A stretch of 64,000 nucleotides of DNA from Candidatus Yonathbacteria bacterium. GTDB lineage: Bacteria; Patescibacteriota; Minisyncoccia; Phycocordibacterales; JACNGX01. Under the pieces are notes generated by a model. That model was not told the origin of the DNA and ran no database searches. It saw only the letters and a list, made by a program, of their open reading frames with translations. Made by a program: the position numbers and the translations under genes. Every line of letters begins with the position of its first letter. Position 1 is the stretch's first letter. The DNA is taken from assembly GCA_013334825.1 (NCBI GenBank), contig JAAXWR010000001.1, positions 11,769-75,768 of the forward strand, in the 5' to 3' direction. Shown here in pieces: positions 2,634 through 54,026 of this stretch.

Positions 2634-4613
2634 ATGCGCGAGGGGCTTTCTATTTGCTATACTATAATTATGAATAGAGAATTTCATTCAGATATTGAAG
2701 AAGACGCGGGACGTATTGACGAAGTAAAAGAACGTCTATATGGGAAGAATTTTACTTCACGAAAAACATCTCTTCGCCCCGCATTTGGAACTCGTGACGC
2801 AGCACTCCCCTCATCTTGGGAAGGGCGTTCTGACGAAGACACTCCGGCTCCGCGTCCACGCAAAAAAGGATTTGGACTCCGTGTATTTTTTGTTACTTCA
2901 ATTATTTTTTTTATCGTTGCGGCAGGGATTGCTGGTGTTATGTTGATATGGGGAGGGAATGGTGTTTCTTCGGAACGGATTGAGATTGTCGTTGATGGCC
3001 CTGTTTCTGTTGCGGGTGGGGATGAGACAGATTTACATATTAAGATTACGAATAACAATCGAATGCCAATATTAGATGGAAATATGGTGATATCTTTCCC
3101 TTCAGGATTTCATGTGAAAGATACTGAAGGAAATGAAATAACCAGTCAATTTTTCTCCATTGGCGTCCTTGGGGCAGGGGAGACGAGTGAGCAGACACTC
3201 AAGGGAAGGATTTTTGGAGGTGAAGATGAAAGGAAACATATTGCCATTGTCATGGAATATCGTGTAGAAGATTCAAATGCCATATACACAAAAGAAGCAG
3301 GGTATGACATTGTGATTGACGCTGCCCCTATTGCGGTTTCGGTGGACACACTTCAGGAAGTAAATACAGGGCAAGAGACGGAGGTTACGATTACTGTGGT
3401 ATCCAATACAGATACGATTGCGGAAGACCTCGTTCTTTCAGTGGAATATCCTTTTGGTTTTGAACCAAAAACAGCAGACCCGAAACCCTTCTCAGGAACT
3501 ACCTTGTGGCGTTTGGGAGATTTACCTCCAGGAGCAGAACGCACCGTGACTATTCGTGGTATTGTACGTGGACAAAATAATGATGAAAAGACGTTTCGCG
3601 CTTTTGTAGGGCAAGAAGATCCTAAAAATCCAGGAGTATTAGGGGTGCTGTATAATGAAGCAGAAACATTTTTTGTCGTGAAAGACTTATTTCTTGGTGT
3701 AGGACTTTCTTTAAATAGTGAAGTAGATGATACCTACACATTTGGACCAGATACTGTCGTGCGTGGAGTTGTTACGTATACAAATAATCTCTCTGTTCCT
3801 CTGCGCAATGTCTCTATCGAAGTTGAACTTGATGGTGAGGCCGTTGATACATACGCCGTGGATGTACGTGATGGATATTACAATCCAACAACAAGCGTGT
3901 TGGTGTGGGATCGAACAACATACGATGAACTTGCATCTCTTGATGCGGGTGGATCGGGGACATTGTCTTTTTCATTCCGCACGCCCGTGCTTTCGAGTGG
4001 CACAAATGTGTTGGTAAAAAATCCTTCTATTGATGTCCGTGTCAACGTTGCGGGTGTCCGTGAAGGAGAAGAGAATGTAAACGAAGAGAGAGTTGGTGCT
4101 GTTGAACGTACTGTGTACGTTTGGTCAGATATGCATCTTGCGGCGCACGCAGTCTATGGAAATGGTCCTTTTAAAAACACAGGGCCTCTTCCACCTGTTG
4201 CGGGAAAAGAGACAACGTATACGGTTATGATGTCCGCGACCAATTCATCGAATAATCTTTCTGAAGTGACTGTGACGGGCGTGTTACCTCAAGGAGTTTC
4301 ATGGAAAGGTGTCATTGATCCTCTTCACGCAGCGGTCTCGTATAATGAATCGACGCGTAGTGTCACGTGGCGTATTGGACGTATGGAAGCGGGCGCGGGT
4401 ATTGCTGGTGCAGGACCTTCTGTTGCTTTTAGCATCGGACTTGTGCCGAGTACAACACAGATAGGAAGTGTTATTCCTTTAGTGTCCGATATTCGTATGA
4501 CTGGATATGATGAATATGCGCGCACACAAATTAGACAAACGGTACGTGATATCACTACCAATATTGTATCTGATCCTTCTTATACGCAAGGATGGGGGAC
4601 AGTGACTCGATAA
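2634..4613 (+). CDS. hypothetical membrane-anchored protein with large beta-rich extracytoplasmic domain
   Basis: 659-aa ORF. About 75-aa cytoplasmic N-terminus, one TM helix (FFVTSIIFFIVAAGIAGVMLIW), then T/V/S-rich repeats. The likely start is the internal M of 'MNREF'. Confidence 0.6.
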   Translation: MREGLSICYTIIMNREFHSDIEEDAGRIDEVKERLYGKNFTSRKTSLRPAFGTRDAALPSSWEGRSDEDTPAPRPRKKGFGLRVFFVTSIIFFIVAAGIAGVMLIWGGNGVSSERIEIVVDGPVSVAGGDETDLHIKITNNNRMPILDGNMVISFPSGFHVKDTEGNEITSQFFSIGVLGAGETSEQTLKGRIFGGEDERKHIAIVMEYRVEDSNAIYTKEAGYDIVIDAAPIAVSVDTLQEVNTGQETEVTITVVSNTDTIAEDLVLSVEYPFGFEPKTADPKPFSGTTLWRLGDLPPGAERTVTIRGIVRGQNNDEKTFRAFVGQEDPKNPGVLGVLYNEAETFFVVKDLFLGVGLSLNSEVDDTYTFGPDTVVRGVVTYTNNLSVPLRNVSIEVELDGEAVDTYAVDVRDGYYNPTTSVLVWDRTTYDELASLDAGGSGTLSFSFRTPVLSSGTNVLVKNPSIDVRVNVAGVREGEENVNEERVGAVERTVYVWSDMHLAAHAVYGNGPFKNTGPLPPVAGKETTYTVMMSATNSSNNLSEVTVTGVLPQGVSWKGVIDPLHAAVSYNESTRSVTWRIGRMEAGAGIAGAGPSVAFSIGLVPSTTQIGSVIPLVSDIRMTGYDEYARTQIRQTVRDITTNIVSDPSYTQGWGTVTR

Positions 4614-11898: not shown

Positions 11899-12055
11899 GT
11901 TCGTTCTACAGAGAAAAATGCAAGGTCGATGCACCAATCTATGAATACCCCCAAAAAATAACGTGAATATTCCGCACCACGAGGGAATGTTCATGTCGCA
12001 TAAGAACACTGTCATTTGTGTGACAGTTATTAATCAAAATATTATTTTTATCGTT

Positions 12056-12697
12056 ATGTATATATTTAAATTATTTTTTTCATCAGCGACGATAATGGCG
12101 CTCATGTTGACGCTAGTGTATCCTGCGCTTGAACCAGTGATTGTACGTGCCCAAGTTACAGATACGGTTGTTGTAACGCAGACAGTTGATGCTGGGATCG
12201 CTATTTCGTCACCAAGTGATATCACGATGACGCATCTCTCTACCACGCAAAATAGTGCTGTGGGGAGTGCTACGTGGACAGTTACGACGAACAATCAAGC
12301 TGGATATACACTTGATGTACACGCATCAACTGATCCAGCACTTCAAAGTGGATCAGAGCAATTTACTGATTATACAGAGACATCCGCAGGTGTTCCTGAA
12401 GTCTGGAATGTGGTTAGTGCATATGAATTCGGGTTCTCCGCGTATGGGACACATGTGCCTGCTGCGTGGGACACTAATACTGCTACAGATTGTATTGAGG
12501 GGGCGAATGTTCCAGGTGTAGACCTTCGATGGTTGGGATTTAATGGGACGACCGATATTGAGGTGGCGTCATCTTCTTCTGAAACAGGAACTTCAGGAAT
12601 TGCATCTACTATATGTGTGGCAACAGAACAAGATGGAGTCTTCGCACCCTCCGGTGTTTACACTGCCACTATCACAGCGACTGCGACAACTCAATAA
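12056..12697 (+). CDS. secreted surface protein, paralog A (WxL-like C-terminus)
   Basis: Signal-peptide-like N-terminus (the true start is one of the in-frame ATGs at 12056 or 12095). C-terminal 'WLGFNGTTDIEV...GVFAPSGVYTATITATATTQ' is paralogous to 13746..14483 and resembles the WxL motif 'P.G.YTG.LTWTL'. Confidence 0.55.
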   Translation: MYIFKLFFSSATIMALMLTLVYPALEPVIVRAQVTDTVVVTQTVDAGIAISSPSDITMTHLSTTQNSAVGSATWTVTTNNQAGYTLDVHASTDPALQSGSEQFTDYTETSAGVPEVWNVVSAYEFGFSAYGTHVPAAWDTNTATDCIEGANVPGVDLRWLGFNGTTDIEVASSSSETGTSGIASTICVATEQDGVFAPSGVYTATITATATTQ

Positions 12698-13669
12698 ATG
12701 TTTACTGATATGAAAACTCATACAGTTTTAAAAAAGAATATGTATTTTTTTGGATTGTTCATCGTAAGTATGTTGTTGTTTCCTGGATTTGTGAGTGCGT
12801 ACACAATTACTCATATAGGTGCTTCAATACGAGGGGACTTTGTCCTTGAGCCAGCAAAGATTGAACTCTTCACTAATCCTGGGCATGAGTCAGTTACTGA
12901 ACTTCAGGTAACGAATCGAACTGATGATACGCTTACTTTCTCTGTATCAATCGAAGACATGTCTGGTTCTGATGATCCGATGCGCCCAGTGCTTTTGCTC
13001 GGTGATAAACAGGGGCCGTACTCTCTTCGTGATTACATTAAGCCAGAGATTGATACCTTTACGCTCAAATCAGGCGAACGGATAACATTACCGGTGACTA
13101 TCTCGATTCCCTTGGATGCCGAGCCAGGGGGATTATATGGCAGTGTGTTGTTCGAAAGTCGAAGTATTGGTCAAAGTGAAGAGGCGTCTCGAACAATATC
13201 GCGTCTCGGAGCACTCCTTTTTGTTCGTGTAAATGGAGATGTTGCAGAGAGCGGTGCACTTGAAGATTTTCGTGTATCGGGTGGATCCCCTGTCTCTTTT
13301 ACACAAGAGCCAATCGGATTTGAAATGTTGTATCGAAACAGCGGATCAGTGCACGTTAACCCGTACGGTATGATTACGGTACGAAATTTGTTCGGACTTA
13401 CTGTTGGAGAAATTGAAGTGACTCCATATTACGCGATGCCAGAATCACTTCGATATCGAAAAGTCATGTGGGAACATGGACCTCTTTTCGGATACTATAC
13501 GGCGACGCTTGAACAAAATCGTGGATACGATGATATCGTTGATACTCGTACACTTTCATTTGGTGTGTTGCCATGGAGAGAATCTCTTATCGCATTTATT
13601 CTTATCCTATTTGTTATCTTTGGAGGACGATGGATAATTACAACATTTGAATTTAAGCGTAAGAAATAA
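12698..13669 (+). CDS. DUF916/DUF3324-like cell-surface protein with C-terminal membrane anchor
   Basis: Signal peptide. 'FVLEPAKIELFTNPGHESVTELQVTNRTDDTLTFSVSIEDM' resembles the DUF916 N-terminus. C-terminal TM helix plus basic tail 'FILILFVIFGGRWIITTFEFKRKK', as in CscA proteins. Confidence 0.5.
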   Translation: MFTDMKTHTVLKKNMYFFGLFIVSMLLFPGFVSAYTITHIGASIRGDFVLEPAKIELFTNPGHESVTELQVTNRTDDTLTFSVSIEDMSGSDDPMRPVLLLGDKQGPYSLRDYIKPEIDTFTLKSGERITLPVTISIPLDAEPGGLYGSVLFESRSIGQSEEASRTISRLGALLFVRVNGDVAESGALEDFRVSGGSPVSFTQEPIGFEMLYRNSGSVHVNPYGMITVRNLFGLTVGEIEVTPYYAMPESLRYRKVMWEHGPLFGYYTATLEQNRGYDDIVDTRTLSFGVLPWRESLIAFILILFVIFGGRWIITTFEFKRKK

Positions 13670-13745
13670 TTGTATTCAAGATTTGGTACACACATTCTTC
13701 ATGACCACATGTATGCACACAGAAATAAAAAGATGTTCCGGACAT

Positions 13746-14483
13746 ATGCATGTACGCATAGCTCTCATCTGCTGTCTTTTGTGTGCTCCTGTTGCGTTTG
13801 CTGCGGTAATGGAAAGTGACTCGTATCGTATGAGTGCGGATAGTGTGAATATCGGAGGGGCGTTTGGTGAGAGTGATTCATATCACATAGAGGATACAGT
13901 CGGTGAGATTGCGACGGGAGATTCGGGAAGTACATCATATCGTCTTCATGCGGGGTATCAACAGATGCATGGATCAATGATATCAGTAACACCTGGATCT
14001 GATGTAAATCTCAGTGCACTTTCTATGGCACAGAACTCGGCTGTTGCGTCAACTTCTTGGGTCGTAACAACTGACAATACTGCAGGATATATATTTTCAG
14101 TTCGAGCTTCTTCCGTTCCAGCACTCATTGATGGAGGAACAAATGAATCATTTACTGATTATACCGATGGGGGAGTTCCCGAGAGTTGGAATGTTACCGG
14201 AGCTTACGAATTTGGTTTTTCGGGATATGGAGGAAATGTTGAAACAGCAACATGGGGAATGGACATAGGGCCTGATTGTATCGAGACTCCCAATGTTCCG
14301 TCCGCAGGACTCAATTGGCTTGGTTTTGAAGGCACAAATGATATTCTTCTTGCATCTTCAGAATATAGAACTGATGAAGCGGGAGAGTCCACTGTTATGT
14401 GTGTTGCCACACAACAGAATGGGGTCTTTGCGCCGTCGGGTACGTATACGGCAACAGTGACAGCTACCGCTGTCGCGCAATGA
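13746..14483 (+). CDS. secreted surface protein, paralog B (WxL-like C-terminus)
   Basis: Signal peptide 'MHVRIALICCLLCAPVAFAAV'. Its C-terminal half is clearly paralogous to 12056..12697 (YEFGFSGYG, NWLGFEGTNDI, GVFAPSGTYTATVTATAVAQ). Confidence 0.6.
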   Translation: MHVRIALICCLLCAPVAFAAVMESDSYRMSADSVNIGGAFGESDSYHIEDTVGEIATGDSGSTSYRLHAGYQQMHGSMISVTPGSDVNLSALSMAQNSAVASTSWVVTTDNTAGYIFSVRASSVPALIDGGTNESFTDYTDGGVPESWNVTGAYEFGFSGYGGNVETATWGMDIGPDCIETPNVPSAGLNWLGFEGTNDILLASSEYRTDEAGESTVMCVATQQNGVFAPSGTYTATVTATAVAQ

Positions 14484-14530
14484 TGACATGTTGTTCTTTG
14501 AGAACTATGGATACCACTTCAAGACAACAC

Positions 14531-15883
14531 ATGAAAAAAAAAGCCATTCATGTGGCCATAAGTTTTTTCTTCGTGTTGAATTACATGGGAATGACCCCAT
14601 TGCATCTTTTTGCCGCAACGGATAGTGACATTCTTCTTATTCGTCAACAGGTGGGGGATAGTATTGTGCCTCCACCACCATCTTCACTGGGAGGGGGTGG
14701 AGGGACATTTCTTGCCCCAGAACTTTCTATCACCAATGTACGTACTGATGCACACACGACGGATGTTGTCGTTTCGTGGACGACAAGCATCTTTTCGACG
14801 GCCGTACTCACATGGGGGACAGAGGGTGTGTATGGCAAAGGACAATCGGCCGAAGTTGTCCCTTCAATGGAACATACGATGTCGATTGATGGGTTGTCAC
14901 CAGGTACTCAATACGCATTGTCTTTGCGAGTGACAGATATATACGGGAGAGTGGTTACTGTTGAAGGAGTGTTATTGAGAACAGAACGTCTTCCTGACAG
15001 TATTCCTCCAGCGAACGTATCTGATTTCACAGCGATATATCAAGATGAAGGGGTCATGCTCTCATGGGATAATCCTCCTGACACTGATTTCAAGCGTGTA
15101 CGCATTGTGCGGTCAGACATGTTTTTCCCTGAGGATCCATATGATGGACTTGTTGTGTATGAGGGGCGTAAGGAATTTGCACGCGATACATGGGTTGACT
15201 TAGGAACGACGTATTATTATACGGCATTTGCAGAAGACAACACAGGGAATTATGCATCGGGCGCACTTGCTCGTATCCGTATTCCACGTTCTCTCGACGA
15301 AGTGTTTGTTCCTGAGACAGATGAGGGTGATATGTTTGGTGGCATTGAGATACTTCCCGAATACGGTGAAGTTCCGGAAGAAATAAAAACACTTTCATTT
15401 CAAGACTTTCGTTTTGTGCAGTTTGGAAAAGACGTAGAAAGAAATGGGAATACACTTGTCATTGATGCGTCAGGAAATCTTCAAATTCTTCTCGGGTATG
15501 ACTCTGTTCCAGAAGTGTTAAAGACAATCGGGGTGACTCTTGTTGATCCAAATGACCCATCGAAAGTATTTCCATTTTTGTTGCGCCGTGACACAGAAGG
15601 TGATGCATACAGCGCGACACTCGCTCCGCTCACGCGTCCAGGCGTATATCGTATTTCTGCGACAGTGCTTGATTATAAACATCAAGTACTCAAACGATTC
15701 GAAGGAAAACTTATTGTTCCTGGGACAATCGAAACAGAGAGCTTTCCCGCGTTTATAGGTGTTTGTGATTATTGTACAAAAGAGCTGAATGGTTGGCGAT
15801 TTCTTTTCTGTTATGGTTGGATAGCTCTCATACTCATATTGATACTCCTTATGCGTCGGAAAAAAAAGAAGAAAAATTATTGA
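14531..15883 (+). CDS. surface protein with fibronectin type III domains and C-terminal TM anchor
   Basis: Signal peptide. FN3/PAP-N-like 'TDVVVSWTTSIFSTAVLTWGTEG...YALSLRVTD', then a second FN3. C-terminal TM helix plus poly-K tail. Confidence 0.6.
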   Translation: MKKKAIHVAISFFFVLNYMGMTPLHLFAATDSDILLIRQQVGDSIVPPPPSSLGGGGGTFLAPELSITNVRTDAHTTDVVVSWTTSIFSTAVLTWGTEGVYGKGQSAEVVPSMEHTMSIDGLSPGTQYALSLRVTDIYGRVVTVEGVLLRTERLPDSIPPANVSDFTAIYQDEGVMLSWDNPPDTDFKRVRIVRSDMFFPEDPYDGLVVYEGRKEFARDTWVDLGTTYYYTAFAEDNTGNYASGALARIRIPRSLDEVFVPETDEGDMFGGIEILPEYGEVPEEIKTLSFQDFRFVQFGKDVERNGNTLVIDASGNLQILLGYDSVPEVLKTIGVTLVDPNDPSKVFPFLLRRDTEGDAYSATLAPLTRPGVYRISATVLDYKHQVLKRFEGKLIVPGTIETESFPAFIGVCDYCTKELNGWRFLFCYGWIALILILILLMRRKKKKKNY

Positions 15884-15901: not shown

Positions 15902-18900
15902 ATGTATATACCACGCACACGATATATAGTAATGTTTGTAACATTTCTCATAGGAGTGAGTGCTTTTGTTGTGGTGCGTGCGGCATTTAATCCAGAGATA
16001 AATTATCAAGGGAAACTTACGAATACGAGTAACGTCGCGGTGAATAATGGAGACTATAATATACGTTTTCGTCTGTATACCGTTCCGTCGGGCGGTTCTC
16101 CACTATGGACGGAGACGCTCTGTTATTCTCCTGATGCGGGAACTACGTGTGACGGAACAGGTGTCGACAATCGTCCTGAGATTTCGAGTGGTTTATTTTC
16201 TGTACTGCTAGGTGCTGTGTCATCGCTCGCGTCTGTTAATTTTGATCAGACACTCTATTTGGGTGTTGAGATTGGAGGATCCAGCTCAACGCCGACCTGG
16301 GACGGCGAAATGACCCCGCGTAAAAAACTCGGTGCGGTCCCTGCTGCATTTGAAGCAGGGAGACTTGATGGAATTGACTCAGCATCGTTCTTGCGTTCAG
16401 ATGAGCCAGATACAATGGCAGTAACGTCTGCATCGACAGCTCTTACTATCACTCAGTCAGGAACAGGAGATATCCTAAATATCAACGACGGCGCAAGTGA
16501 AGTGTTCACCATCCTTGATGGTGGCAATGTCGGCATTGGCACCATTACCCCTGGTCAAAAACTCACCGTTGACGGCACCCTCGGTATTTTGGAAGGAGGC
16601 ACGACCCCGACGTACCACACGATATTCCAAGGGGGAGATCAGGCAGGTGATGTTACGTATACACTACCGACCGCACAAGCAGGAGGGAGCGGCTATGTGC
16701 TTTCTAATAATGGATCAGGAATTTTGTCGTGGGTTGCTGGAGGGGGTGGAGGAGGTATGGCAATCGGCGGAGCAGTGACTTCAGGGACTTTAGGTTCCAT
16801 ACTTTTTGTTGATGCATCGGGAAATCTTGCACAAGACAATACGAATTTCTTTTGGAATAACACTGATAAAAGATTGGGTATCGGGACGAATACGCCAAAC
16901 GAAGCACTGGATGTAAATGGTACGATTCAAGCAAAAAAAATCCTATTTTATGACGATACCATTACAGGCAAAACTCACAGCAACATCTCTTTTTCGGAAA
17001 CGGAAGTATCCCCAACAGTTACAGATCTTTTGCTTGATTCTGATACAGGAACTGACTTTCGGTTTATAATGGATCATGTATATGAGATAGATTTTGGCAC
17101 ACCTCCTGGAGGTATGAGCGGTTTTTCAAATGCTATAACACTTGGGACGACCGGGACTTCGAGTTTGCGCTTTAATAGCGGTCCGCAGATATACGGTGGT
17201 GTCGGGGATGCGTTGTACCTGGATAGCTATCACGGCACTCTTGTTTCTAATAACAGTGGTGATATCGTTCGTTTTGGGACCAGTAGTGCTAATACAGACA
17301 CGTATTTTTATGGAAATGTCGGTATCGGCACCGCCGTCCCCGATCGTCGTCTCGACGTCCTCGATGCCACAAACCCTCAGCTCCGTCTCACCTACACCGA
17401 CGGCTCGGTGTACACTGATTTTCAGACAACTTCTGCTGGTGATTTATATATAAATCCATCGGGTGGTAGTGTTGGTATCGGGACTGCACTCCCGACTTAT
17501 CCACTGGAAGTTAGTGGAGGAAATCTTGGAGCACAAATGAAGATAACACATTCTGGCGTTGGTTATGCCCCCGCAAGTATTTTATTGGAAGAAGAAACTG
17601 ATTTTGGAAGAGGACAAGGCATTTACCAGCATAGTGTTCCCGATGGCGACTCTTGGTTTTCTGGTGTTCCCTATGGAGCTGATGGAGATTTGTGGGGTGT
17701 CTTCTATAAAAATGATGTGGTGTGGGATCCTAGTGTAGCCTCTACCGCATATTCTGTTCTTAGAGTTGAGAAAAGCGGAAACATAGGACTTAATACTTCT
17801 GCTTATTTAAATTGGGGTGAGATTGGAACGAGCGGATATGGTCTTCGAGATAATGGAGGAGTAATGCAATATAAAAATTCTAGTGGTTCATGGACAAATC
17901 TTTCTGCCGGCGGTGGAGGCATGGCAATTGGAAGTGCTGTAACGTCAGGGACTTCTGGCTCTGTACTTTTTGTTGATGCATCGGGAAATCTTGCACAAGA
18001 CAATACGAATTTCTTTTGGAATAACACTGATAAGAGATTGGGTATCGGGACGAATACTCCTGCATATGATTTGGATGTGGCAGGAAGCGGATATTTTAGA
18101 TCAAAGAGCGGATTAAGTACTGTTACAGAAAGTTTTGAAGGGGTGACGTTTCCCCCAACTAGTTGGACAACAGGAGGTGATGCGAACTGGACAAGAACAA
18201 CAGCGGAAGCACAAGAGAGTGCGGCATCCGCAAATTCAGGGACAATAACAAACAGTCAAATTGCATGGATTGATCGTGATTATACATTTACCACAACAGG
18301 GGAGGTAAAATTCTACTGGAAAGTAAGTTCAGAGACAGCATATGATTACCTCTTGTTTTGTGCTGACAACGATTTATCATGTACAGATAGTTCGTATACG
18401 CAGCGTATTTCAGGCGAGGTTGACTGGGTTGAAGTGACATATGTTGTATCAACACCTGGTGTACATAGTTTTCGTTGGGTTTATTCAAAAGATTCTGGAG
18501 ATCCAGGAGTTTTTCCTTGGTCAGATGAAGGATGGATTGATAATGTGCGTTTTATAGAATCAACAGGAATATCTGGTGGTAATGTGTTTGCTGAAGGGTA
18601 TCTTTCCACAGGAGATAGTGGAGTGTTTATAGGATCTTCCACAAATGATCGAGGGAGTATTTTATATGATACAACGAATAATATTCTTGCATTTGATACG
18701 GATTCGGTTACAAATGCTGACGTTTCGTTCTTTTCCGATAATTTATATATTGATAAATCAACAGAATATATCGGCATTGGTGATGTGACACCCGATTCCG
18801 TTCTCGATATCCTCTCTGCCACCGCTTCCAACACCCAACTCTCCATCGGAAACACTAATGCCGGAGACTATGACCCACAAATCGGGTTCCAGCTCGCCGA

Positions 18901-21778
18901 CGGAACGACCAATATCTTCACGATGGGTATTGACGATTCCGACTCCGACAAGTTCAAGATTTCCGGTGGCTCTGCTCTCGGCACGAACGACCGCCTTGTG
19001 ATTGATTCGTCGGGGAATGTCGGACTTGGCACCGCTGGTCCCGATCGTCGTCTCGATGTCCTCGATGCCACGAACCCTCAGCTCCGTCTCACCCATACCG
19101 ACGGCTCGATGTACACTGATTTTCAGACAACATCAGAAGGAGATATTACTGTCACCCCATCGGGCGGGGATTTAACATTTATAGGAAATATTCTCCCAGG
19201 TGGTACATCGGGTGCATATAATCTTGGTTCTGATACTGCACGATGGGGCGATTTTTATCTTGACGGTGAGACAATTCATATTGGTTCATCATTAACGGAT
19301 GAAGGAATTATCTCATATACGTCTGGAAATATTCTCTCTTTTGACACTGACACAACGACAGGTGGTGACATTGCCTTTTTTACTGATGATATTTATCTTG
19401 ATAAATCAACAGGATATGTAGGTTTGAGTGATACTACACCCGATCACACTCTTGATGTCGCAGGCAATATTGGACTTAACACTTCTTCATACATCAACTT
19501 TGGTGACACTGATGGCACCGATGGTTATGGTTTTCGTGATAATGGGGGAACACTTCAGTTCAAGCACAACGGTGGATCATGGACAAATTTTGGAGCATCA
19601 TCGTCCTCGGTGACCCCAAGGGATTTTTGGTCATTCAATCATTTTTATTATAACGGTGTTAGTTCAATGGATCCGTTTTTCGGAGCGGCGATTTCCTCGG
19701 GAACGATAGGTGCTCCGACTGCCGCATCAATGGCGAGTGGTAACCATCCGGGAGCGATTCTTGTCAGCAAAGCAGCAAGTACGACAGCGAACTCGGGATA
19801 TCGTATTACTGGACTCAGTACAGCGATGGTTTTGGGAGGAGGATATCTTTTTGAGGGGGTGATAAACGTGCGCACTCCCGCAGCAGGGACAAACACTATT
19901 TATCTTGGTTTTCATGACGCGACGAGTGTGACTGCTCCGGTGGACGGTGTGTATTTTGATATTGCGGGAACGACGGTAACAGGGCGTTCACGAGGAGGAT
20001 CTGCAACTCTTGCAACAGCGAGCACATACACAGTTTCTACTGGAAACACTGATTGGTATCGCTTTAGAATTGTCATTAATACAGCGGCAACGCGTGCGGA
20101 CTTTTATATTTATGATGACGCTGGCACGCAGGTGTGGACAGATTATGTCAGCGGAAACGCGGGCGATCTTCCAACGGCGACAGCAGACTTGCTCACCGCT
20201 GGATTTCTCGGGGTGAACTCTTCAACCACGGCAACTGCCTATGAAATTGCAAATGTCGATTATATGGGAATGGGAACAGTCGCGGGATATGATGCGTTTA
20301 CAACAGGCGGTTCTGGTCTTTGGACGGTGAATGGATCGAATGTGTATTATAATGCTGGTAATGTCGGTATTGGAACAACAGCACCTTCACAGGCACTTTC
20401 TGTTTCGGGGACATTGGGTATTATTGAAACAGGAACAACACCACAGTATTACAGTATCTTTCAAGGAGGTGACCAAGCTGGCAATATTACCTATACGTTA
20501 CCGACAGCTGTTGGTGGTGCAGGACAACAACTTACCGATGCAGCAGGTAATGGCGTGCTTTCATGGGCGGCAGCTGGTTCAACTCGCAATTTAAAAGATA
20601 TTGATGGATTAATCGAAGATCCGCAAGAAGCTCTTGAGACAATTTTGGAAACAAATATTTATGCCTTTCATTATAAGGAAGGTATGGGAACAGGAGACGC
20701 GCAAACACAATATGTTGGTGTTATGGCGGATGAAGCATCATGGGCAATGCACTATGATGGAAATGTAGTAAACCCTGTGAATACATTGGGGTATATGGTC
20801 CTTGGTATGCAAGCGACAAACAAACGCATTGATGACATTATTGCTGGGTTGGCATCAGTATCGGATAGTGGAGGGAATTCTCTTTCGGATACAGGAATGG
20901 CAGTATTGTATGCGCCAATTACCGCCATGCTCTCAAATGATCCAATGAATGGTATGCGAATTGCCTCAATACTCTCTTCGTTTATTGAAGGAGGGGATGT
21001 CGGTACGTCATTTTGGAATGTAGATGCTGTTACTGGTGTTATTTCACCTCTCGGATCTCTTGATATGGATGGGAATGGTGTGTATGATGTTGCGGAAATT
21101 ATTGGTATCGATGAATCATGGAGTGTTAATCGACAAGGACTTCTTACGGTGAATGGTCTCGTCGTACGGGGAGATATTGAGGTGGGAAGTCGTGAAAAAC
21201 CTTCGGGCATTACACTCTATGATGAAGTGACAGGAGAGCCGTATTGTCTCCGTATGGTTGCGGGAGTGATAGAGTCCACGCTAGGGACATGTGAAAGTTT
21301 ACGGGCGTCTTCATCTGATGGTGGTGATATGGGGGACATCACACCTCCCACCATTGTACTTCGAGGCAATAACCCCGCACGTATTGAAATTGGTGATGAA
21401 TACGGTGATCTTGGCGCAACAGTAACAGATGACAATGATGAATATCCAACACTGGAGATATATATTGAGGGTGAAAAAGTTGATACTGTTCATATTATGG
21501 CAAGAGAAGATGCGACGTATACTATTGAGTATGTTGCCTATGATGATGTAGGAAATACCTCAACCGTAACACGTACCGTGATTGTGGGGAATGGGAGTCC
21601 AGATGCTCAAGAAGAAAGCGAAGTTGAGGATGTTCCTTTAGTCGAAATACCTCCGGTAGCAGAGCCAGACCCCGAACCGTCAGTAGAAGAAGTGATTATT
21701 GATACAGAACCAATACCAGAACCAGTCAGTGGGTCTGGAAATGTTCTCTCAGATGAGCCACAAACTCTTCATGAATAA
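15902..21778 (+). CDS. giant (1958 aa) tail-fibre-like cell-surface protein with internal intramolecular-chaperone (peptidase S74-like) domain
   Basis: N-terminal signal/TM. Repeated 'GNVGIGT..P...LDV' fibre motifs. Two jelly-roll/lectin-like inserts. 'STRNLKDIDGLIEDPQEALETILETNIYAFHYKE...YVGVMADEA' matches the phage endosialidase chaperone domain. A further about 380 aa follow it, including a DUF5011-like Ig segment 'PPTIVLRGNNPARIEIGDEYGDLGATVTDDND' and an acidic P/E-rich tail. Confidence 0.7.
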   Translation: MYIPRTRYIVMFVTFLIGVSAFVVVRAAFNPEINYQGKLTNTSNVAVNNGDYNIRFRLYTVPSGGSPLWTETLCYSPDAGTTCDGTGVDNRPEISSGLFSVLLGAVSSLASVNFDQTLYLGVEIGGSSSTPTWDGEMTPRKKLGAVPAAFEAGRLDGIDSASFLRSDEPDTMAVTSASTALTITQSGTGDILNINDGASEVFTILDGGNVGIGTITPGQKLTVDGTLGILEGGTTPTYHTIFQGGDQAGDVTYTLPTAQAGGSGYVLSNNGSGILSWVAGGGGGGMAIGGAVTSGTLGSILFVDASGNLAQDNTNFFWNNTDKRLGIGTNTPNEALDVNGTIQAKKILFYDDTITGKTHSNISFSETEVSPTVTDLLLDSDTGTDFRFIMDHVYEIDFGTPPGGMSGFSNAITLGTTGTSSLRFNSGPQIYGGVGDALYLDSYHGTLVSNNSGDIVRFGTSSANTDTYFYGNVGIGTAVPDRRLDVLDATNPQLRLTYTDGSVYTDFQTTSAGDLYINPSGGSVGIGTALPTYPLEVSGGNLGAQMKITHSGVGYAPASILLEEETDFGRGQGIYQHSVPDGDSWFSGVPYGADGDLWGVFYKNDVVWDPSVASTAYSVLRVEKSGNIGLNTSAYLNWGEIGTSGYGLRDNGGVMQYKNSSGSWTNLSAGGGGMAIGSAVTSGTSGSVLFVDASGNLAQDNTNFFWNNTDKRLGIGTNTPAYDLDVAGSGYFRSKSGLSTVTESFEGVTFPPTSWTTGGDANWTRTTAEAQESAASANSGTITNSQIAWIDRDYTFTTTGEVKFYWKVSSETAYDYLLFCADNDLSCTDSSYTQRISGEVDWVEVTYVVSTPGVHSFRWVYSKDSGDPGVFPWSDEGWIDNVRFIESTGISGGNVFAEGYLSTGDSGVFIGSSTNDRGSILYDTTNNILAFDTDSVTNADVSFFSDNLYIDKSTEYIGIGDVTPDSVLDILSATASNTQLSIGNTNAGDYDPQIGFQLADGTTNIFTMGIDDSDSDKFKISGGSALGTNDRLVIDSSGNVGLGTAGPDRRLDVLDATNPQLRLTHTDGSMYTDFQTTSEGDITVTPSGGDLTFIGNILPGGTSGAYNLGSDTARWGDFYLDGETIHIGSSLTDEGIISYTSGNILSFDTDTTTGGDIAFFTDDIYLDKSTGYVGLSDTTPDHTLDVAGNIGLNTSSYINFGDTDGTDGYGFRDNGGTLQFKHNGGSWTNFGASSSSVTPRDFWSFNHFYYNGVSSMDPFFGAAISSGTIGAPTAASMASGNHPGAILVSKAASTTANSGYRITGLSTAMVLGGGYLFEGVINVRTPAAGTNTIYLGFHDATSVTAPVDGVYFDIAGTTVTGRSRGGSATLATASTYTVSTGNTDWYRFRIVINTAATRADFYIYDDAGTQVWTDYVSGNAGDLPTATADLLTAGFLGVNSSTTATAYEIANVDYMGMGTVAGYDAFTTGGSGLWTVNGSNVYYNAGNVGIGTTAPSQALSVSGTLGIIETGTTPQYYSIFQGGDQAGNITYTLPTAVGGAGQQLTDAAGNGVLSWAAAGSTRNLKDIDGLIEDPQEALETILETNIYAFHYKEGMGTGDAQTQYVGVMADEASWAMHYDGNVVNPVNTLGYMVLGMQATNKRIDDIIAGLASVSDSGGNSLSDTGMAVLYAPITAMLSNDPMNGMRIASILSSFIEGGDVGTSFWNVDAVTGVISPLGSLDMDGNGVYDVAEIIGIDESWSVNRQGLLTVNGLVVRGDIEVGSREKPSGITLYDEVTGEPYCLRMVAGVIESTLGTCESLRASSSDGGDMGDITPPTIVLRGNNPARIEIGDEYGDLGATVTDDNDEYPTLEIYIEGEKVDTVHIMAREDATYTIEYVAYDDVGNTSTVTRTVIVGNGSPDAQEESEVEDVPLVEIPPVAEPDPEPSVEEVIIDTEPIPEPVSGSGNVLSDEPQTLHE
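16801..16893 (+). repeat. intragenic repeat R1a, near-identical to 17964..18056
   Basis: About 93 nt, identical except one base: 'actttttgttgatgcatcgggaaatcttgcacaagacaatacgaatttcttttggaataacactgataa'. Confidence 0.9.
17327..17432 (+). repeat. intragenic GC-rich repeat R2a, about 93% identical to 19028..19133
   Basis: 'ggcaccgccgtccccgatcgtcgtctcgacgtcctcgatgccacaaaccctcagctccgtctcacc...' is seen twice. Confidence 0.85.
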
Positions 21779-34970: not shown

Positions 34971-35145
34971 TCATTCGCTCATGCGGTGTCGCGATGCACA
35001 CCGAACTAATTAGTTACAGGTAAGTGTGCACGGAATCATCGACAATGTCGAAGTCGACCTTCTCCGTACACATGTGCTCTTCACCTGCGCGCGTCTCGCA
35101 AGAAACGCGCGTCCGAAGATCATCGCATTATCATCAATCTATCAT

Positions 35146-38100
35146 ATGAGTACTCAATCCAAATTCTCGAAGTTGGTTGCAGGTCTCGTGGGGTTTTCTA
35201 CAGCCTTCATGATGATCGGCACCGCTTCAGTTGCGGAAGCTGCTGCTTTGACACAGAGCCAAATTGACGCCATCGTCTCTTTGCTCCAGTCATTCGGCGC
35301 GGACTCGCAAACCATTGCGAACGTCCAAGCTTCTCTTTCAGGTGGCACTCCGACCGGCGGTTCTACTACCGGCGGAACCACAACAGGTACGTGTGCGTAC
35401 ACATTCGCCACGAACTTGAAACAAGGTATGACAAGCACCGATGTGATGAACCTCCAAAAGGTTCTGAACAAAAACGCTGCCACCCAAGTTGCCGCCACGG
35501 GCGTCGGCTCAGCGGGTAATGAATCCACGTACTTTGGTGCAATGACCAAAGCCGCCGTTGTAAAGTTCCAAGAACTTTACGCAGCTGACATTCTTACACC
35601 GGTCGGTTTGACCGCGGGTAACGGATATGTCGGTGCGGGCACACGTGCCAAATTGAACGCGGTATGCGCGGGTGGCTCCACAACAGGTGGTTCCACTACG
35701 ACCGGTACAGGCGTGACGGTTTCTTCCGCCACCCAGCCGGCAAACTCGCTCGCGATTGAAAACGCGGCAAATCTTCCGTTTACCAAATTTACGCTCACCA
35801 ACAACGGTTCGTCCGATGCAACGGTGAACAGCGTAACAGTTGAACTCCAAGGTTTGGCTCAAAAGAGCGCGTTTGACAGCGTTGTCCTCTTGGACAATGA
35901 TGGTCAACGCATCGGTCGCGCGCGTTCGTTGAATTCCAACGATCAAGCGACCATCGGCGAAGCAGTCGTCATCAAGGCGGGTGCTTCCAAAACATTCACC
36001 GTCGCTGCAAATATGGATGCAGACCTTGCTTCTGAAGCAGGTGAAGTCGCCAATTTTGCGGTTGTTGCCGTGAATACGAGTGCAACCGTTTCTGGTTCAC
36101 TCCCGATCGTCGGTGCAAGCCACACAACTAACGCGACACTCGCGATGGGAACGGCTGTTATCGATGAAGGTTCCAACCAACCGAATGACAACGATGACGT
36201 TGAAGTTGGTGACGAGAAAGAAGTTCTCGCCTCTGTTCAAGTTGAAGCTGGTTCTGCTGAAGACGTTTCTGTCAAGAGCATCCGCTTCTACCAAACAGGT
36301 TCCGTTTCTTCCTCTGACCTTTCAGGTTTGAAGATTGAAGCAGATGGCGATGACTACACCGTTTCTGTATCATCTGACGGCAAGTACTACACCGCTACTT
36401 TTGGAAATGGTATCACCATTGAAGAAGGTCGTGATTTGGACTTCAAGCTCGTTGGAGATATTGACTCCGGTTCTGGTCGCACGATTGAATTCGAAATCGA
36501 TGAAAACACTGACGTCGTTGTTGTAGGCAAGACCTATGGCTACGGTATCACCCCGACGGGAACATTTACGTCTTCAACACTCGATATTACGGGTGGAGAA
36601 TTCCAATCGTTCTCTCGCGACAATGAAACATCTTCGGCAAATGTTGCCGTTGAGAAGTCTGGTGAAGTGCTCGGTGGATTCCTTATCGAACTCACTGGTG
36701 AAGCCATCAATGTTGATGACATGACGATCTATGTTGATCTTACCAATGCCGGTGGCGCAGCTGCCGATGTTGCAGACATCACAAACGTCAAACTCGTTGA
36801 CGAAGACGGTACTGTCCTTGCTGGACCAGTTGATGGTGATTCCACCAACTCTGGTGCACATGAAGGTTCCATTCTCTTTACAAACGTTACTATCCCGTCC
36901 GGTGAGACTCGTCTTATCGTAACAGGAGAACTCGGTGACGCGTTTGGAACAAACGAAACTGTTATCCTTTCTACAAATCCTTCAACGGATTGGGACGATG
37001 TCCGCGGTGAAGACACCAACGATGCCGCCACCTTGCCGAACGTAACCGTAAGCGCCCACACCATGACGGTGAAAGCCGCTTCTCTTACCGTACGCAATCT
37101 TGCCACACCGGCCGCGCAAAACGTGGTTGCTGGTATGAAGGACTTCGTCTTTGCCAAGGCAGCGCTTGACGCGCAGGATTCTGGTGAAGATGTCGAAGTA
37201 ACAAGCATTACTGTTGATGTTGCAGTTGCCGATGACGCCACTGTTGGTGATCTCGACAATATGGAAATCTGGACATTGAAGTCCGACGGTTCCCTCAATG
37301 TCAAAGTATCTGATACCAAGAACATCACCGCAGCTTCAACTGCATTCGATCTCCGCAGCGACATCGTTGTTGCCAAGGGAACGACTGTAAACGTTGCAAT
37401 CGTTGCCGACATTTCAAGCGGTGCGACACGTAACGGTGATGCAGGTGATACATGGACTGTTGACGTTTCTGACGCTGAAGCCGAAGGTGCCACATCCAAT
37501 GTGGATGCCGACCCGTCTTCAATCGGTGGTACGAACGGTCAAGCAATGACGCTTGCCGAGAATGCTACTGTTGCAGTAACTATCGACTCTACATCTCCTG
37601 AAGCAACCTTCGTACTTGATGGTTCTGAAACAACTCTTGCAGTCTTCCAATTCGAAGAAACTGCGAACGTTGAAGATGTTAACCTCGAGAAGATTACCCT
37701 CGATGTAAACCCAGGTGTTGATGATGCCGTGGATACCTACAAGGTATACAAGGGCTCAACACTTGTTGGTGAAGCTTCCGGCGGTTCTGCTGACGTTGCA
37801 ATCACATTGAACAATGTGGTCATCGCCAAGAACAGCAAGGTTGATCTCACCATCAAGGGTGTGATGGCAGATGTTGACGGAACAACCGTACAAAACGGTG
37901 ATACTGTCGCCCTCTACGTCACTGCGTACGAAGCAACAGGCAAGACTTCTGGAACGTCTCTTGACTCTTCCGCGAACTCTTCCTCTGCTGCAACGCACAC
38001 CTTGTACGAAGCATACCCGACCGTTGCCTTTGACAACACGGGTGTGAGCACGACTCTTGTGAACAATGCCAATCATTTGCTCGCCAAGATCAAAGTAACG

Positions 38101-38517
38101 AACAATGGTTCTGAAGATGTCACGTTCAACAACGCTGACACGAACACATTGACCGTTCAGATCAACAGCGTCAGCGATGACTCTGACACTGCCGCAGCCG
38201 AAGCGCTTTCTCTCCGCGATGAGAATGGAAACATTCTTGACAGCAACCAGACGTTCAACAACGTCACTGGTGCGGAAGTAACCTTCAACCTCGACGGTGC
38301 CTACACGGCAGGACTCACAGTTGGTCCGAACTCGTCCAAGTACTTCTACCTCTACGCTGATACCTCTGATCATGAAGATGACGGAGACAGCATCCAGGTA
38401 TGGCTTGACGACACCGCTGGTGACCTCGTCTTCGGTATTGACAGCACGGGTGCTTACAACGCTGGAGCGGTTGCCTTCAAGGGTGATCTCTACGGTCCGA
38501 CCCACGTCAATCCGTAA
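35146..38517 (+). CDS. S-layer-like major surface protein with peptidoglycan-binding (PG_binding_1) domain
   Basis: Signal peptide 'MSTQSKFSKLVAGLVGFSTAFMMIGTASVAEAA'. 'LKQGMTSTDVMNLQKVLN...YFGAMTKAAVVKFQELY' is a PGBD fold. Over 900 aa of T/S/G/D/V-rich beta repeats. Markedly more GC-rich, with strong codon bias typical of highly expressed genes. Confidence 0.7.
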   Translation: MSTQSKFSKLVAGLVGFSTAFMMIGTASVAEAAALTQSQIDAIVSLLQSFGADSQTIANVQASLSGGTPTGGSTTGGTTTGTCAYTFATNLKQGMTSTDVMNLQKVLNKNAATQVAATGVGSAGNESTYFGAMTKAAVVKFQELYAADILTPVGLTAGNGYVGAGTRAKLNAVCAGGSTTGGSTTTGTGVTVSSATQPANSLAIENAANLPFTKFTLTNNGSSDATVNSVTVELQGLAQKSAFDSVVLLDNDGQRIGRARSLNSNDQATIGEAVVIKAGASKTFTVAANMDADLASEAGEVANFAVVAVNTSATVSGSLPIVGASHTTNATLAMGTAVIDEGSNQPNDNDDVEVGDEKEVLASVQVEAGSAEDVSVKSIRFYQTGSVSSSDLSGLKIEADGDDYTVSVSSDGKYYTATFGNGITIEEGRDLDFKLVGDIDSGSGRTIEFEIDENTDVVVVGKTYGYGITPTGTFTSSTLDITGGEFQSFSRDNETSSANVAVEKSGEVLGGFLIELTGEAINVDDMTIYVDLTNAGGAAADVADITNVKLVDEDGTVLAGPVDGDSTNSGAHEGSILFTNVTIPSGETRLIVTGELGDAFGTNETVILSTNPSTDWDDVRGEDTNDAATLPNVTVSAHTMTVKAASLTVRNLATPAAQNVVAGMKDFVFAKAALDAQDSGEDVEVTSITVDVAVADDATVGDLDNMEIWTLKSDGSLNVKVSDTKNITAASTAFDLRSDIVVAKGTTVNVAIVADISSGATRNGDAGDTWTVDVSDAEAEGATSNVDADPSSIGGTNGQAMTLAENATVAVTIDSTSPEATFVLDGSETTLAVFQFEETANVEDVNLEKITLDVNPGVDDAVDTYKVYKGSTLVGEASGGSADVAITLNNVVIAKNSKVDLTIKGVMADVDGTTVQNGDTVALYVTAYEATGKTSGTSLDSSANSSSAATHTLYEAYPTVAFDNTGVSTTLVNNANHLLAKIKVTNNGSEDVTFNNADTNTLTVQINSVSDDSDTAAAEALSLRDENGNILDSNQTFNNVTGAEVTFNLDGAYTAGLTVGPNSSKYFYLYADTSDHEDDGDSIQVWLDDTAGDLVFGIDSTGAYNAGAVAFKGDLYGPTHVNP

Positions 38518-39755: not shown

Positions 39756-42700
39756 ATGACTACGTATCATCTCACATCTTTTGCTACAATAATCCGTCGT
39801 ATGACAGGTGTTTTCTCGACCGTTTTCGCGGTCTTTTTTATTGTTGCCTTTGGTGTATACAGACCGGGGATATTGGTATATGCGCAATCATCTGATGAGG
39901 TATCTTTTTCTGTGGAAACATTTGGTGCATTTCTTGTTTCAGAATCTTCAGCATTAATCGAGTGTCATATTTCTGGAGCGATACCTGATGAAATACACAT
40001 GTTTGTTCTTCAAAAAGATGAGACATCATCTCAAGAGATAGAGTCAGTTTTTGTTGAGAGATCTATATATCAGTCACCGTTGTTGTATATACAAGCAAAT
40101 CATTCTTATACCTATCAGTGTATTGGGCGAAGTGATGCGGGGGAAGTACGTGGAGAAGAAAAGACATTCATGACGAAAGGGAATGCAACCGTTCTGGCGA
40201 TAACGCATCAAGGAAAGGAAATTCACGAAGGAGATATTCTTTATACGGAAGATTTTCTCTTCCCGACCGATTCGTATGGCATGGTAATGCAGATGCAATT
40301 TTATTGGCCAGTCTGGGTTGAAAATGGGAGAACACTTTTTGCATTGGTAAGGGGTGTCCCAGGACACCTTGAAGGGGGGAGTCCTCTTGATGATGTAAAT
40401 TATGTGTCCAGTATGCAGGTGTGGGGTGAGGGAGTAAACGGTATTACAAAATATATGGGTCAATACGGGTATGATAATAACAAAGTTTCAATGTTAGCTG
40501 ATGCACGTACGATGCCATCTCTTTACACATTCTTCATTGCTGAACGTCCTCCGAGAGACCAATATGTTACAGATGATGAAATAATGACATGGTTCGCTTC
40601 AGGGGGAAGTGAAGGTGTTGCTCCTATACGCCATGCCACAATGACTTTTGAGTATCGTGGTACACGTCGTCACGATACACCTCCAACCCTCAACTATATC
40701 CCTAATGACTCCTATGCCACCGACGCACACATAGCAGGTAGGGGAGTTGAACCCAACAAAGGTGTCGCGGACAAAGACCCGCTCACGTTCGCCACTCTCT
40801 ATACTGACCAAGACGGTGACACCCCCGCTTACGTTCGTCTATGGGTCAAAGACGCGACAGGCACAGACACCTTTTATGACATGACACGCGAAACGGGCGC
40901 TCACGCGCCCGCCCCCCACACCGACGGCAATACCCAAAACGGCGAATGGTACACATTCACTGGCACATTCCCCAAAGGTATATACTCCTACGCATTTCTT
41001 ACTGCCGACACACATGACGGTAACCCCGGTGAAGAAGTGTCATTCCCCGCGCCACTTTCAGGGACACCCACAGACAATCCGCTTTCCTTCACCACCGGCT
41101 ACAGCAATGTCGCATTCCTGCCGGGGATTGGTGGCAGTCGTCTGTATGCGGATTATGGCGTAGGTGAAATGGTGTGGGAACCAAATGACCTTGCGGATGT
41201 TGCGGAAATTCGTTTGGATACAGACACGCATGAAAGCGCCAATCCGTCTATTGTCGTGTCGGGTATCACCGATGAGATACTCCTTCGTCTTGATGCGTGG
41301 CCAACAACGAATGTTTACAAAACGTTCATGCAGTTCATGGATACACAAGTCGTCGGTGCAGGTATCATCAACACATGGAAGCCACTTGCCTATGACTGGC
41401 GCTTAGGTCTTGATACACTTGTTACGCGTGGAACACATATTGATACACGAAATGGCAATGACGTCATTTCATATAACATAACGACAGAGGGGACAAGTAC
41501 TCCGTATCTTCTTTCAGAACTGCGTCATCTCGCCGACACATCTGATTCGGGCAAGGTGTCTCTCATCGCCCATAGTAATGGCGGGCTCCTCGCCAAATAT
41601 ATACTGAAGCATCTCGTGGATACACACGACCCGCTTCTTGACCGTATTGATACTGTCATGCTTGTCGCTTCGCCACAGTGGGGCACACCAGAAGCTGCCG
41701 CGACACTGTTGCATGGCACAACAAAGATTGGCAAAGGCATGGAACGCGACACCGCCGAAACACTGCCGTCCGCGTATCACTTATTGCCGTCAGAAGCGTA
41801 TCTCGAACATGTGCAAACGCCCGTTTTTGTTTTTGACCCCGAAGTATCTTCCATCTCCGACCTTGTTGATTTCGCGGGTCGCGCAATCGGGGGAAGTGGT
41901 GCGTATGAAGCGTTCACTGACTTTATGACGGGACATGCGGGGACATGGACAGAACCAATCGATGTTGATGCCCCCAATGTCCTTGATACAGAACTTCTTG
42001 CCTATGCCAAAGATGTACACGAAGCACTCGACACGTGGACACCACCCGCGCATGTACGAGTTGTACAAATCGCCGGATGGGGTGTTGATACCATACGAGG
42101 CATCGCATACGACAATTGCGATATTCCGTTTTGTCCGCAAACACTGAGCACACTCGACAGGACATTGCAAAAGACAACACTCGGCGACGGCACCGTCGTT
42201 CTTCCCAGCGCGATTGCGATGTCTGGTGGTGTGGAGACGTATTTTTTGAATTTAGATGCATATAATCATTCGGGACTTCTTTATAGTACTCGAAACAGAA
42301 AACATGCTGGAATCTTAGAAGTTGATATCTTAAAAGACTTTCTCAAAAATATCTTTACAAATACAGACCTTCTTCCCGCATATATTTCTACAATAGAGCC
42401 AACGTCTCCTTTGGCAAGCAAAGCATTACATTTCACCATGCACTCTCCCGTTGCCGTGCATCTCTATGACACGGAAGGAAATCATACAGGCATCATCCCC
42501 AATCCCAATAGTGCATCGGACATTCGCGTCTATGAAGAAAACATTCCCAATTCATATTACGAAGAATGGGGTGAAACGAAATACATCGGTGCATCAGATG
42601 ATGGTCCAATCACACTCGTCCTTGATGGCGAAGGAAGTGGTACCTTTACACTTGAGATAGAAGAAACGCAAGGGAACGAGACAACAGCATATACCGTCTT

Positions 42701-53726: not shown

Positions 53727-53941
53727 GGTCGTAAGGCGGTAATGTCGCTTTTATAGTGAGAGATACGTGTGAAGGTTAATGGAACCGACTGGGAAGTCGG
53801 ACCCTAGAGGGTAATAGTCCCGTACATGAAAACCAGATCCGATCTTTGTTACCGTTCTTGAGTACTCCAAGACACGAATAGCTTGGGGGAATTCGCCGGA
53901 ACTAACCGGCAAGGCTAAATACTCTGAGAGATCGATAGTGA

Positions 53942-53975
<34 letters not shown>

Positions 53976-54026
53976 GGAGAGGGGAGTGAAATAGATCTGA
54001 AACCGTATGCCTACAAGGAGTCGGAG

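Follow-up and report, generated by a model that had tools for sequence, protein, structure and literature searches.

What might an intramolecular chaperone auto-processing (ICA) domain do when it lies inside a fibre protein instead of ending it? The question is raised by a gene found in a stretch of 64,000 nucleotides, referred to here as the window, from the genome of a Candidatus Yonathbacteria bacterium (contig JAAXWR010000001.1). The gene encodes a fibre-like surface protein of 1958 residues, in which an ICA domain of the peptidase S74 type is predicted well ahead of the C-terminus. A first-pass annotation, made from the letters alone, had taken the protein either for a domesticated phage fibre used as an adhesin or for a precursor whose cleavage releases a C-terminal fragment. 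The release of such a fragment is the best supported of these readings at the level of sequence, since the Ser/Lys dyad of the domain is conserved in every relative examined that carries the ICA internally. We lean, if only moderately, towards a trimeric adhesive fibre that would cut itself at G1559↓S1560 and shed a C-terminal piece of 399 residues.

The assignment of residues 1560-1650 to the S74/ICA family is one that we accept, from sequence comparison and a structural model, in spite of a marginal Pfam score, because relatives of the same subfamily match the family, the catalytic dyad is invariant, a MYRF motif aligns with the domain, and the predicted fold matches both the MyRF ICA and viral chaperones. 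The 112-residue module taken alone scores 23.3 bits against Peptidase_S74 (PF13884), a borderline result above the cut-off of 22, and 20 of 21 homologous modules match the same family (best E-value 4.3e-8); UniRef automatically labels one relative as a 'Peptidase S74 domain-containing protein'. The conserved Ser-Lys dyad, whose search had been proposed at first pass, is present as Ser1560 and Lys1565 (GS-TRNL-K, with the canonical Ser+5 spacing) and is invariant in all 21 aligned modules. When the profile of the module was compared with the Protein Data Bank (PDB), the ICA domain of MYRF was the sole match (E 0.61, weak), with the GVMADE motif, which begins at nucleotide 20717, aligned to the GVIAQE trimerisation motif of MYRF. 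In the AlphaFold2 (AF2) model, calculated as a monomer, the predicted local distance difference test score (pLDDT) of the ICA core is 73-82, and a Foldseek search of this model against the PDB returned as its top three matches the MyRF ICA domain 7dc3 (probability 0.97-0.99, E about 0.05). Among the viral structures of BFVD, the named high-probability matches are nearly all ICA, endosialidase-chaperone, L-shaped-tail-fibre and neck-appendage proteins. A phmmer search of the C-terminal 458 residues against PDB sequences gave nothing meaningful, and a scan of NCBIfam gave no useful match.

An exhaustive profile search with the module collected 713 proteins at E ≤ 1e-3, and the position of the ICA was counted in the best 150 representatives. 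This position is bimodal: 123 of the 150 proteins end no more than 45 residues past the module, whereas 26 carry more than 100 further residues. The internal position is not singular, being shared with these 26 representatives and with MYRF. The internal-type proteins for which a source is named come from Nomurabacteria, Yonathbacteria and Paceibacterota, all of them Parcubacteria; the same layout is found on contig L001 (Paceibacterota), and a protein from an independent Yonathbacteria metagenome-assembled genome (MAG), P0045, is collinear with the window protein at all junctions, with an identity of 80-92% through the fibre/ICA junction and of 77% over the beta module that follows the ICA. 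The motif S.R..K is kept in every internal-type representative whose module includes its N-terminal edge, which argues that proteolysis, and not trimerisation alone, would be under selection in these proteins.

The module also occurs in 32 IMG/VR viral contigs, where it is terminal in 32 of 32 cases (0-36 residues past the match); the two viral contigs examined are genuine tailed phages, and no match was found in 50,697 cultured-phage records. Judged by these matches, the ICA subfamily is common to phages and cells, and the internal layout is a recurrent one in cellular Parcubacteria proteins; with 26 of 150 representatives of the internal type, it is not a one-off. On two tailed-phage contigs (L040, 3484-6303, and L043, 4804-6363) the ICA-ending fibre gene stands directly after the genes for the head protease and the major head protein and before those for the head-tail adaptor and the tape measure, an unusual location for a tail fibre, so that these genes may encode head fibres. 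Two further relatives, P0006 and P0012, carry tandem ICAs, in which a single GNVGIGT fibre unit separates the subfamily module from a canonical S74 domain (SSRAYKQDI...) behind it; this would imply two possible self-cleavage sites per chain. The protein P0002 was considered as a stand-alone chaperone gene and rejected: its contig, L068 (ENA ERZ1286166 contig_978), is ridden with frameshifts. Housekeeping genes on L068 (Amidase, SecDF) are also split, and the contig is probably an uncorrected long-read assembly in which proteins such as P0002 are fragments.

What follows the ICA is, by sequence comparison, a conserved and transferable cassette and not a random extension. Its length, put at about 380 residues in the first-pass annotation, holds only as an approximation: 308 residues lie past the core, which ends at about residue 1650, about 263 if the AF2 helices to about residue 1695, probably the helical portion of the ICA, are included, and 399 if counted from the scissile Ser. 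Behind these helices comes a beta module with two cysteines (motif ITLYDEVTGEPYC...C; invariant core GS..K..G[IV]TLYDE.TG.PYC...G...G.C), with 13 invariant alignment columns including both Cys and an AF2 pLDDT of up to 86. It belongs to no Pfam family, and a profile of its 55-residue ITLYD region, too short a query, found nothing significant among 5.8 billion proteins. Identity to the closest relatives is 70-77% in the beta module, as compared with 80-86% in the ICA core and 82% in the shaft. The immunoglobulin (Ig)-like domain and the acidic tail rich in Pro and Glu (P/E-rich) that had been proposed to close the protein were both recovered. The Ig domain is optional, as it is missing in P0045 and P0001 and is 83% identical in P0003. 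After residue 100, neither a transmembrane (TM) segment (Kyte-Doolittle above 1.6) nor LPXTG or any other sorting or anchor motif was detected.

The extensions past the ICA fall into three recurrent classes. Class 1 combines the beta module, with or without the PF16403 Ig domain, with a tail rich in Pro, Glu and Thr, and includes the window protein, P0045, P0047, P0048, P0067, P0079, P0001 and P0003; class 2 has a short hairpin with two Cys followed by a P/E tail; and class 3 has a coiled coil of about 100-150 residues followed by a beta domain ending in F[ND]WWIV (P0038, P0049, P0065, P0069, P0071, P0073, P0096, P0106 and P0019). The class 3 beta domain gives a sub-threshold match to PF24146, the C-terminal domain of a K1 capsule lyase (24 bits, cut-off 27). 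P/E-rich tails occur in about half of the internal-type relatives. In P0003, the same beta module and Ig domain are joined to a canonical S74 domain of a different subtype, and for this reason the cassette is taken to be portable and to accompany ICA domains generally. That the ITLYD module also exists independently of an ICA was considered and rejected, since the proteins without a visible ICA (P0029-P0032) are probably fragments. As to its role, the cassette might keep the three C-termini joined, or close to the envelope, while the fibre assembles outside the cell, cap the tip until cleavage, or act separately once released.

The N-terminal part of the protein fits an exported fibre. Residues 1-27 are the sole segment above 1.6 on the Kyte-Doolittle scale in the whole protein, and VRA↓AFNPEINYQGKL is read as a cleavable Sec signal peptide because in about 100 homologues an A-x-A site precedes, by 4-6 residues, the conserved mature N-terminus INYQGKL; cleavage is thus predicted from the alignment. 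The open reading frame (ORF) is exactly the one given in the first-pass annotation. An identical gene is present in the public assembly GCA_013335985.1 (contig JAAXUO010000004.1), where it is called from an ATG ten codons downstream to give 1948 residues; the longer start supplies the positively charged n-region ahead of the hydrophobic segment. Neither candidate ATG is preceded by an obvious Shine-Dalgarno sequence, and a promoter scan gave results at chance level only. The beta-sandwich domain that follows (AF2 mean pLDDT 84.5) has at least 156 homologues at E ≤ 1e-3, 42-65% identical, which share the signal peptide and the domain; the named ones are all Patescibacteria (Taylor-, Kaiser-, Nomura-, Vogel- and Nealsonbacteria, and Paceibacteria), and most of the homologues are recorded as 'partial'. 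A PDB fold search with this domain returned no specific relative, only generic Ig and macroglobulin-like folds. By analogy with the Bdellovibrio fibres discussed below, it is the probable cell-proximal docking domain. The three Cys pairs of the protein (74/83, 820/827 and 1782/1797) fit an extracellular location.

The fibre repeats noticed at first pass were confirmed, with five copies of G.[VI]G[IL][GN]T..P...L (at residues 208, 471, 522, 1038 and 1486) against none expected by chance. Compared with PHROG, the shaft matches a tail fibre family (phrog_9942, E 1e-10) and phrog_5906 (E 2e-20), and its relatives are found in Patescibacteria, Bdellovibrionales, Micavibrio and Omnitrophota. Judged by its repeats and its ICA domain, the protein would be a homotrimeric fibre on the cell surface. 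Two inserts in the shaft had been described as lectin- or jelly-roll-like: one of them is a Pfam domain, SO2946-like_C, located near the tip of the mature fibre, while the other, at residues 742-886, has no match to a Pfam family or a PDB sequence, and phmmer searches of both inserts against PDB sequences gave nothing meaningful. The shaft also contains a near-exact duplication of residues 282-332 at 670-720 (nucleotides 16745-16897 and 17909-18061), within which a stretch of 22 residues, QDNTNFFWNNTDKRLGIGTNTP, is identical, and a second one of residues 482-497 at 1049-1064 (17345-17392 and 19046-19093). These duplications were located by exact-string search (self-BLAST gave the identity match only). 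The unit that precedes the ICA (TYTLPTA..G...L....G.LSW) recurs at residues of about 250-277, where it stands before a poly-Gly run and not before an ICA. Together, these features suggest modular accretion. The coordinates of all these features are collected in Table 1.

Table 1. Features of the fibre gene and its product, in window positions.
Feature	Residues	Nucleotides	Strand	Description
Fibre gene	1-1958	15902..21778	+	ATG start; 1958 codons plus stop; ORF uninterrupted
Predicted Sec signal peptide	1-27	15902..15982	+	R5 and R7 in n-region; 17-residue h-region; predicted site VRA↓AF
N-terminal beta-sandwich domain	~28-160	15983..16381	+	INYQGKL...LWTE...PRKKLGAVPAAFEA
Fibre shaft	161-1559	16382..20578	+	G.[VI]G[IL][GN]T..P...L repeats; ends ...LSWAAAG1559
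Insert, fold unassigned	742-886	18125..18559	+	TESFEGVTFPPTSW...WIDNVRFIE; Cys820, Cys827
SO2946-like C-terminal domain (PF22237)	1289-1445	19766..20236	+	Pfam E 3.2e-22; 79.7 bits (cut-off 27)
S74/ICA core	1560-1650	20579..20851	+	Predicted scissile bond G1559↓S1560; Ser1560 codon 20579-20581; Lys1565 codon 20594-20596
Helical stalk/linker	1651-1703	20852..21010	+	AF2 helices to ~1695; 47-55% identity to closest relatives
2-Cys beta module	1704-1800	21011..21301	+	FWNVD...LDMDGN...WSVN...EVGSREKPSGITLYDEVTGEPYC1782...GTC1797
Ig-like domain (PF16403, bacterial surface)	1819-1895	21356..21586	+	Pfam E 3.3e-10; 40.3 bits (cut-off 27)
Acidic P/E-rich tail	1896-1958	21587..21775	+	63 residues; 11 P, 13 E, 5 D, no K or R

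In the S74/ICA family, which includes the chaperone domain (CIMCD) of endosialidases, the domain nucleates the folding of the trimer and then cuts N-terminal to its Ser. Following this model, the protein would be exported through the Sec pathway with removal of its signal peptide, and its conserved N-terminal beta domain would, by analogy, dock the fibre to the cell surface. The long shaft would carry the SO2946-like domain, together with the last beta-helical unit, away from the cell, the orientation being borrowed from the fibres of predatory bacteria discussed below and from phage fibres, where the conserved N-domain is proximal and the variable parts are distal. The internal S74/ICA domain, whose homology is established above, would then nucleate trimer folding, a chaperone role taken from its family, and once the trimer has formed, Ser1560 and Lys1565 would cut the bond between G1559 and S1560. 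The products would be a mature fibre of about A28-G1559 and a trimeric piece of 399 residues made up of the ICA, the helical stalk, the disulfide-containing beta module, the Ig domain and the acidic tail. The adhesin function of the fibre is likewise put forward by analogy.

The closest cellular counterparts are the mosaic adhesive trimeric (MAT) fibres of Bdellovibrio, which have a signal peptide, a conserved beta-rich N-domain, a fibre of about 1000-2000 residues and variable tips (Caulton et al. 2024, PMC10769870). The S74 domain of the MAT protein Bd3182 self-cleaves at S782, with a result quoted for the S782A mutant; in the 13 S74-type MATs this domain ends the protein and the context of the dyad is SDxxxK; and the MAT fibres are listed for Bdellovibrionales, Micavibrio and Omnitrophota, with no members from the Candidate Phyla Radiation (CPR) (PMC10769870). 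The window protein resembles them in being encoded by a cellular gene with a signal peptide, a beta N-domain, a phage-like fibre with G-rich capping repeats, variable domains and a Ser-x4-Lys S74 domain, in belonging to organisms that live on other cells, and in having fibre-repeat relatives in these same three groups. However, contrary to the MATs, it carries about 260-310 residues of conserved modules past the S74 domain, its dyad reads S-T-R-N-L-K instead of SDxxxK, its capping repeat is a variant longer by one residue, VG[IL]GT..P...L (the five copies mentioned above), and its host is a monoderm-like CPR bacterium. By analogy, it would be a surface fibre of the MAT kind and a candidate member of the MAT family.

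The phage C-terminal chaperones (K1F endosialidase 3GW6, T5 pb1 and the GA-1 neck appendage; MEROPS S74/PF13884) share with the window protein the domain family, the Ser/Lys dyad and the position directly after a triple beta-helical fibre unit, and the same subfamily is present in contigs of uncultivated tailed phages. They differ in that the domain is terminal in phages and internal here, and in that phage fibres fold in the cytoplasm whereas the window protein is exported. The internal position is instead shared with MYRF, where a coiled coil and more C-terminal sequence come after the ICA (dyad S587/K592, with a GVIAQ-like motif), the protein is tethered to the endoplasmic reticulum through a TM helix in this downstream part, and an Ndt80-type DNA-binding domain lies upstream; a result is also quoted for the S587A mutant (Bujalka et al. 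2013, PMC3742440). Apart from this position, MYRF/MrfA and the window protein have in common the spacing of the dyad and the GVIAQ-like motif, and MYRF is the best match of the latter both in structure (PDB 7DC3) and in the PDB profile search. Contrary to MYRF, the window protein has no TM helix after the ICA and no Ndt80 match in Pfam, and its N-terminal part is an extracellular fibre. A search of the literature on S74 domains or tail fibres in Patescibacteria found nothing relevant and, as far as the literature searched shows, an internal ICA with conserved cassettes has been described only for eukaryotic MYRF.

Several observations weigh against a fibre that cuts itself and sheds its C-terminal piece. 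In the Pfam check suggested at first pass, the full-length protein stays below the cut-off of 22 (Peptidase_S74, 17.8 bits, residues 1564-1612, E 0.004), and only the isolated module passes it; the profile match to MYRF is weak; at position +1 of the canonical SDxxxK, Thr replaces Asp; and confidence in the AF2 model of the C-terminal region is low overall (mean pLDDT 59). The protein lacks the strict MAT capping motif V-G-[GN]-pi-x-x-P-x-x-x-L. A cleavable signal peptide, together with the lack of any TM segment or sorting motif, leaves the attachment of the fibre to the cell without explanation, and the beta module is conserved about as well as the shaft, which would be unexpected for a piece that is merely discarded. 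Some of these points would favour an ICA-like domain that trimerises without cutting, so that the beta module and the Ig domain form a distal ligand-binding tip: the replaced Asp, the shaft-like conservation of both modules (70-77%, and 83% for the Ig domain of P0003), and the fact that PF16403 Ig-like domains are common parts of adhesins. Yet Ser and Lys never vary, whether the ICA is terminal or internal, although trimerisation alone needs neither of them, as judged from endosialidase mutants together with the quoted S782A and S587A results; the Ig domain is dispensable in close relatives, and an acidic low-complexity tail would be odd as a distal tip. We therefore rate cleavage as likelier than such an uncut clamp, which we consider unlikely, because the dyad is strictly kept in the internal-type proteins. 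Even less probable seems to us a release similar to that of MYRF, where the Ig domain and the acidic P/E tail would hold the precursor at the envelope until trimerisation and cleavage free the finished fibre. The best structural match is indeed the MyRF ICA, the signal peptide looks cleavable and would thus leave no N-terminal membrane anchor, and the C-termini of internal-type proteins repeatedly have P/E-rich segments, which resemble the regions that span the wall in surface proteins of monoderms. However, no anchor of any kind is found past residue 100, no part of the family is conserved more widely than the N-terminal domain, a pattern that fits the end by which MAT and phage fibres dock to the cell, and the variable domains lie toward the C-terminal side of the shaft.

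Two further explanations are both very unlikely. That the gene is a tail fibre gene of a prophage or phage remnant is highly improbable, even though the shaft matches tail fibres in PHROG and the ICA subfamily occurs in viral contigs, two of them from verified tailed phages. As stated at first pass, no phage genes were found near the fibre gene within the 64 kb examined; its neighbours encode IleRS, a ProRS-like protein, MetRS, TatD, S6, SSB, RecA, FtsK and a Mur ligase, and the GC content is uniform (0.44-0.47) and flat across the gene. The unannotated upstream ORFs have no match in PHROG, except for one fn3-type match to tail fibre J. In addition, a Sec signal peptide is predicted, at least 156 cellular Patescibacteria proteins share the N-domain, cultured phages have no match, and all viral versions have a terminal ICA. 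Because of the housekeeping neighbours, the uniform GC content, CPR-type rRNA genes with group I introns and N-domain homologues whose named sources are all Patescibacteria, the window is cellular: the fibre gene is a chromosomal gene of a bacterium of the Parcubacteria (CPR/Patescibacteria) and not a phage gene. Nor is the domestication of a phage fibre shown, as the protein belongs to a large cellular family that resembles the MAT fibres. Least credible of all is an assembly or annotation artefact fusing two genes. Assemblies often break at long repetitive fibre genes, most of the homologues are entered as 'partial' and L068 is full of frameshifts, but here nothing interrupts the ORF, the NCBI record has it in identical form, P0045 from an independent MAG aligns collinearly over every junction with 77-92% identity, and the architecture recurs in 26 representatives.

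Beyond type IV pili, little is known of the means by which CPR/Patescibacteria recognise their host cells and stay attached to them. The gene described here is a member of a very large family in Patescibacteria whose secreted products resemble phage fibres. This family parallels the prey-recognition MAT fibres of predatory bacteria and therefore offers concrete candidates for CPR host recognition. An ICA-containing cellular fibre with conserved post-ICA cassettes, recurrent in Parcubacteria, is not categorically new; with its predicted cleavage, it would represent a bacterial parallel to the internal ICA processing of the MYRF type, and, if this holds true, the scheme of trimerising and then self-cutting into two products would be in use outside phages and eukaryotes. 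More speculatively, the ICA of Parcubacteria might have changed from a C-terminal cap that is discarded into an internal switch, by which one exported precursor gives two functional trimers, a host-binding fibre and a cassette, the latter tethering the precursor to the envelope until assembly, as in the MYRF-like release, or acting on the host cell by itself. We consider this proposal unlikely; if true, the three classes of cassettes would represent an unrecognised toolkit of CPR episymbiosis.

Directly upstream of the fibre gene, on the same strand, lies a cluster of surface-protein genes (11963-15883) whose products are secreted or C-terminally anchored. Two of them are secreted paralogues (11963-12697 and 13647-14483), and two others have a TM helix at the C-terminus: one is DUF916/WxLIP-like and has a KRKK tail (12698-13669), the other is an fn3 protein and has a poly-K tail (14399-15883). 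No strong terminator-like hairpin was found between this cluster and the fibre gene, and we infer that they may be co-transcribed as an operon. The rRNA regions of the window (53136-57523 and 63758-64000) contain a 23S gene of 4132 nucleotides, as compared with 2925 in the model, which holds two group I introns (55967-56238 and 56671-56929); ORFs inside the 23S insertions, such as 56358-56666 (+), could be homing endonucleases. The 5S gene follows the 23S gene, and about 6 kb containing protein-coding genes separates this pair from the start of the 16S gene, which lies downstream. Such an unlinked, intron-bearing arrangement is typical of CPR. Elsewhere in the window, an ORF of 1163 residues (35026-38517) has no Pfam match at all, another of 1140 residues (39756-43178) has weak alpha/beta-hydrolase (LCAT-like) matches only, and a protein of 659 residues with a DUF11 repeat domain (2634-4613), probably located at the cell surface, is encoded among the aminoacyl-tRNA synthetase genes.

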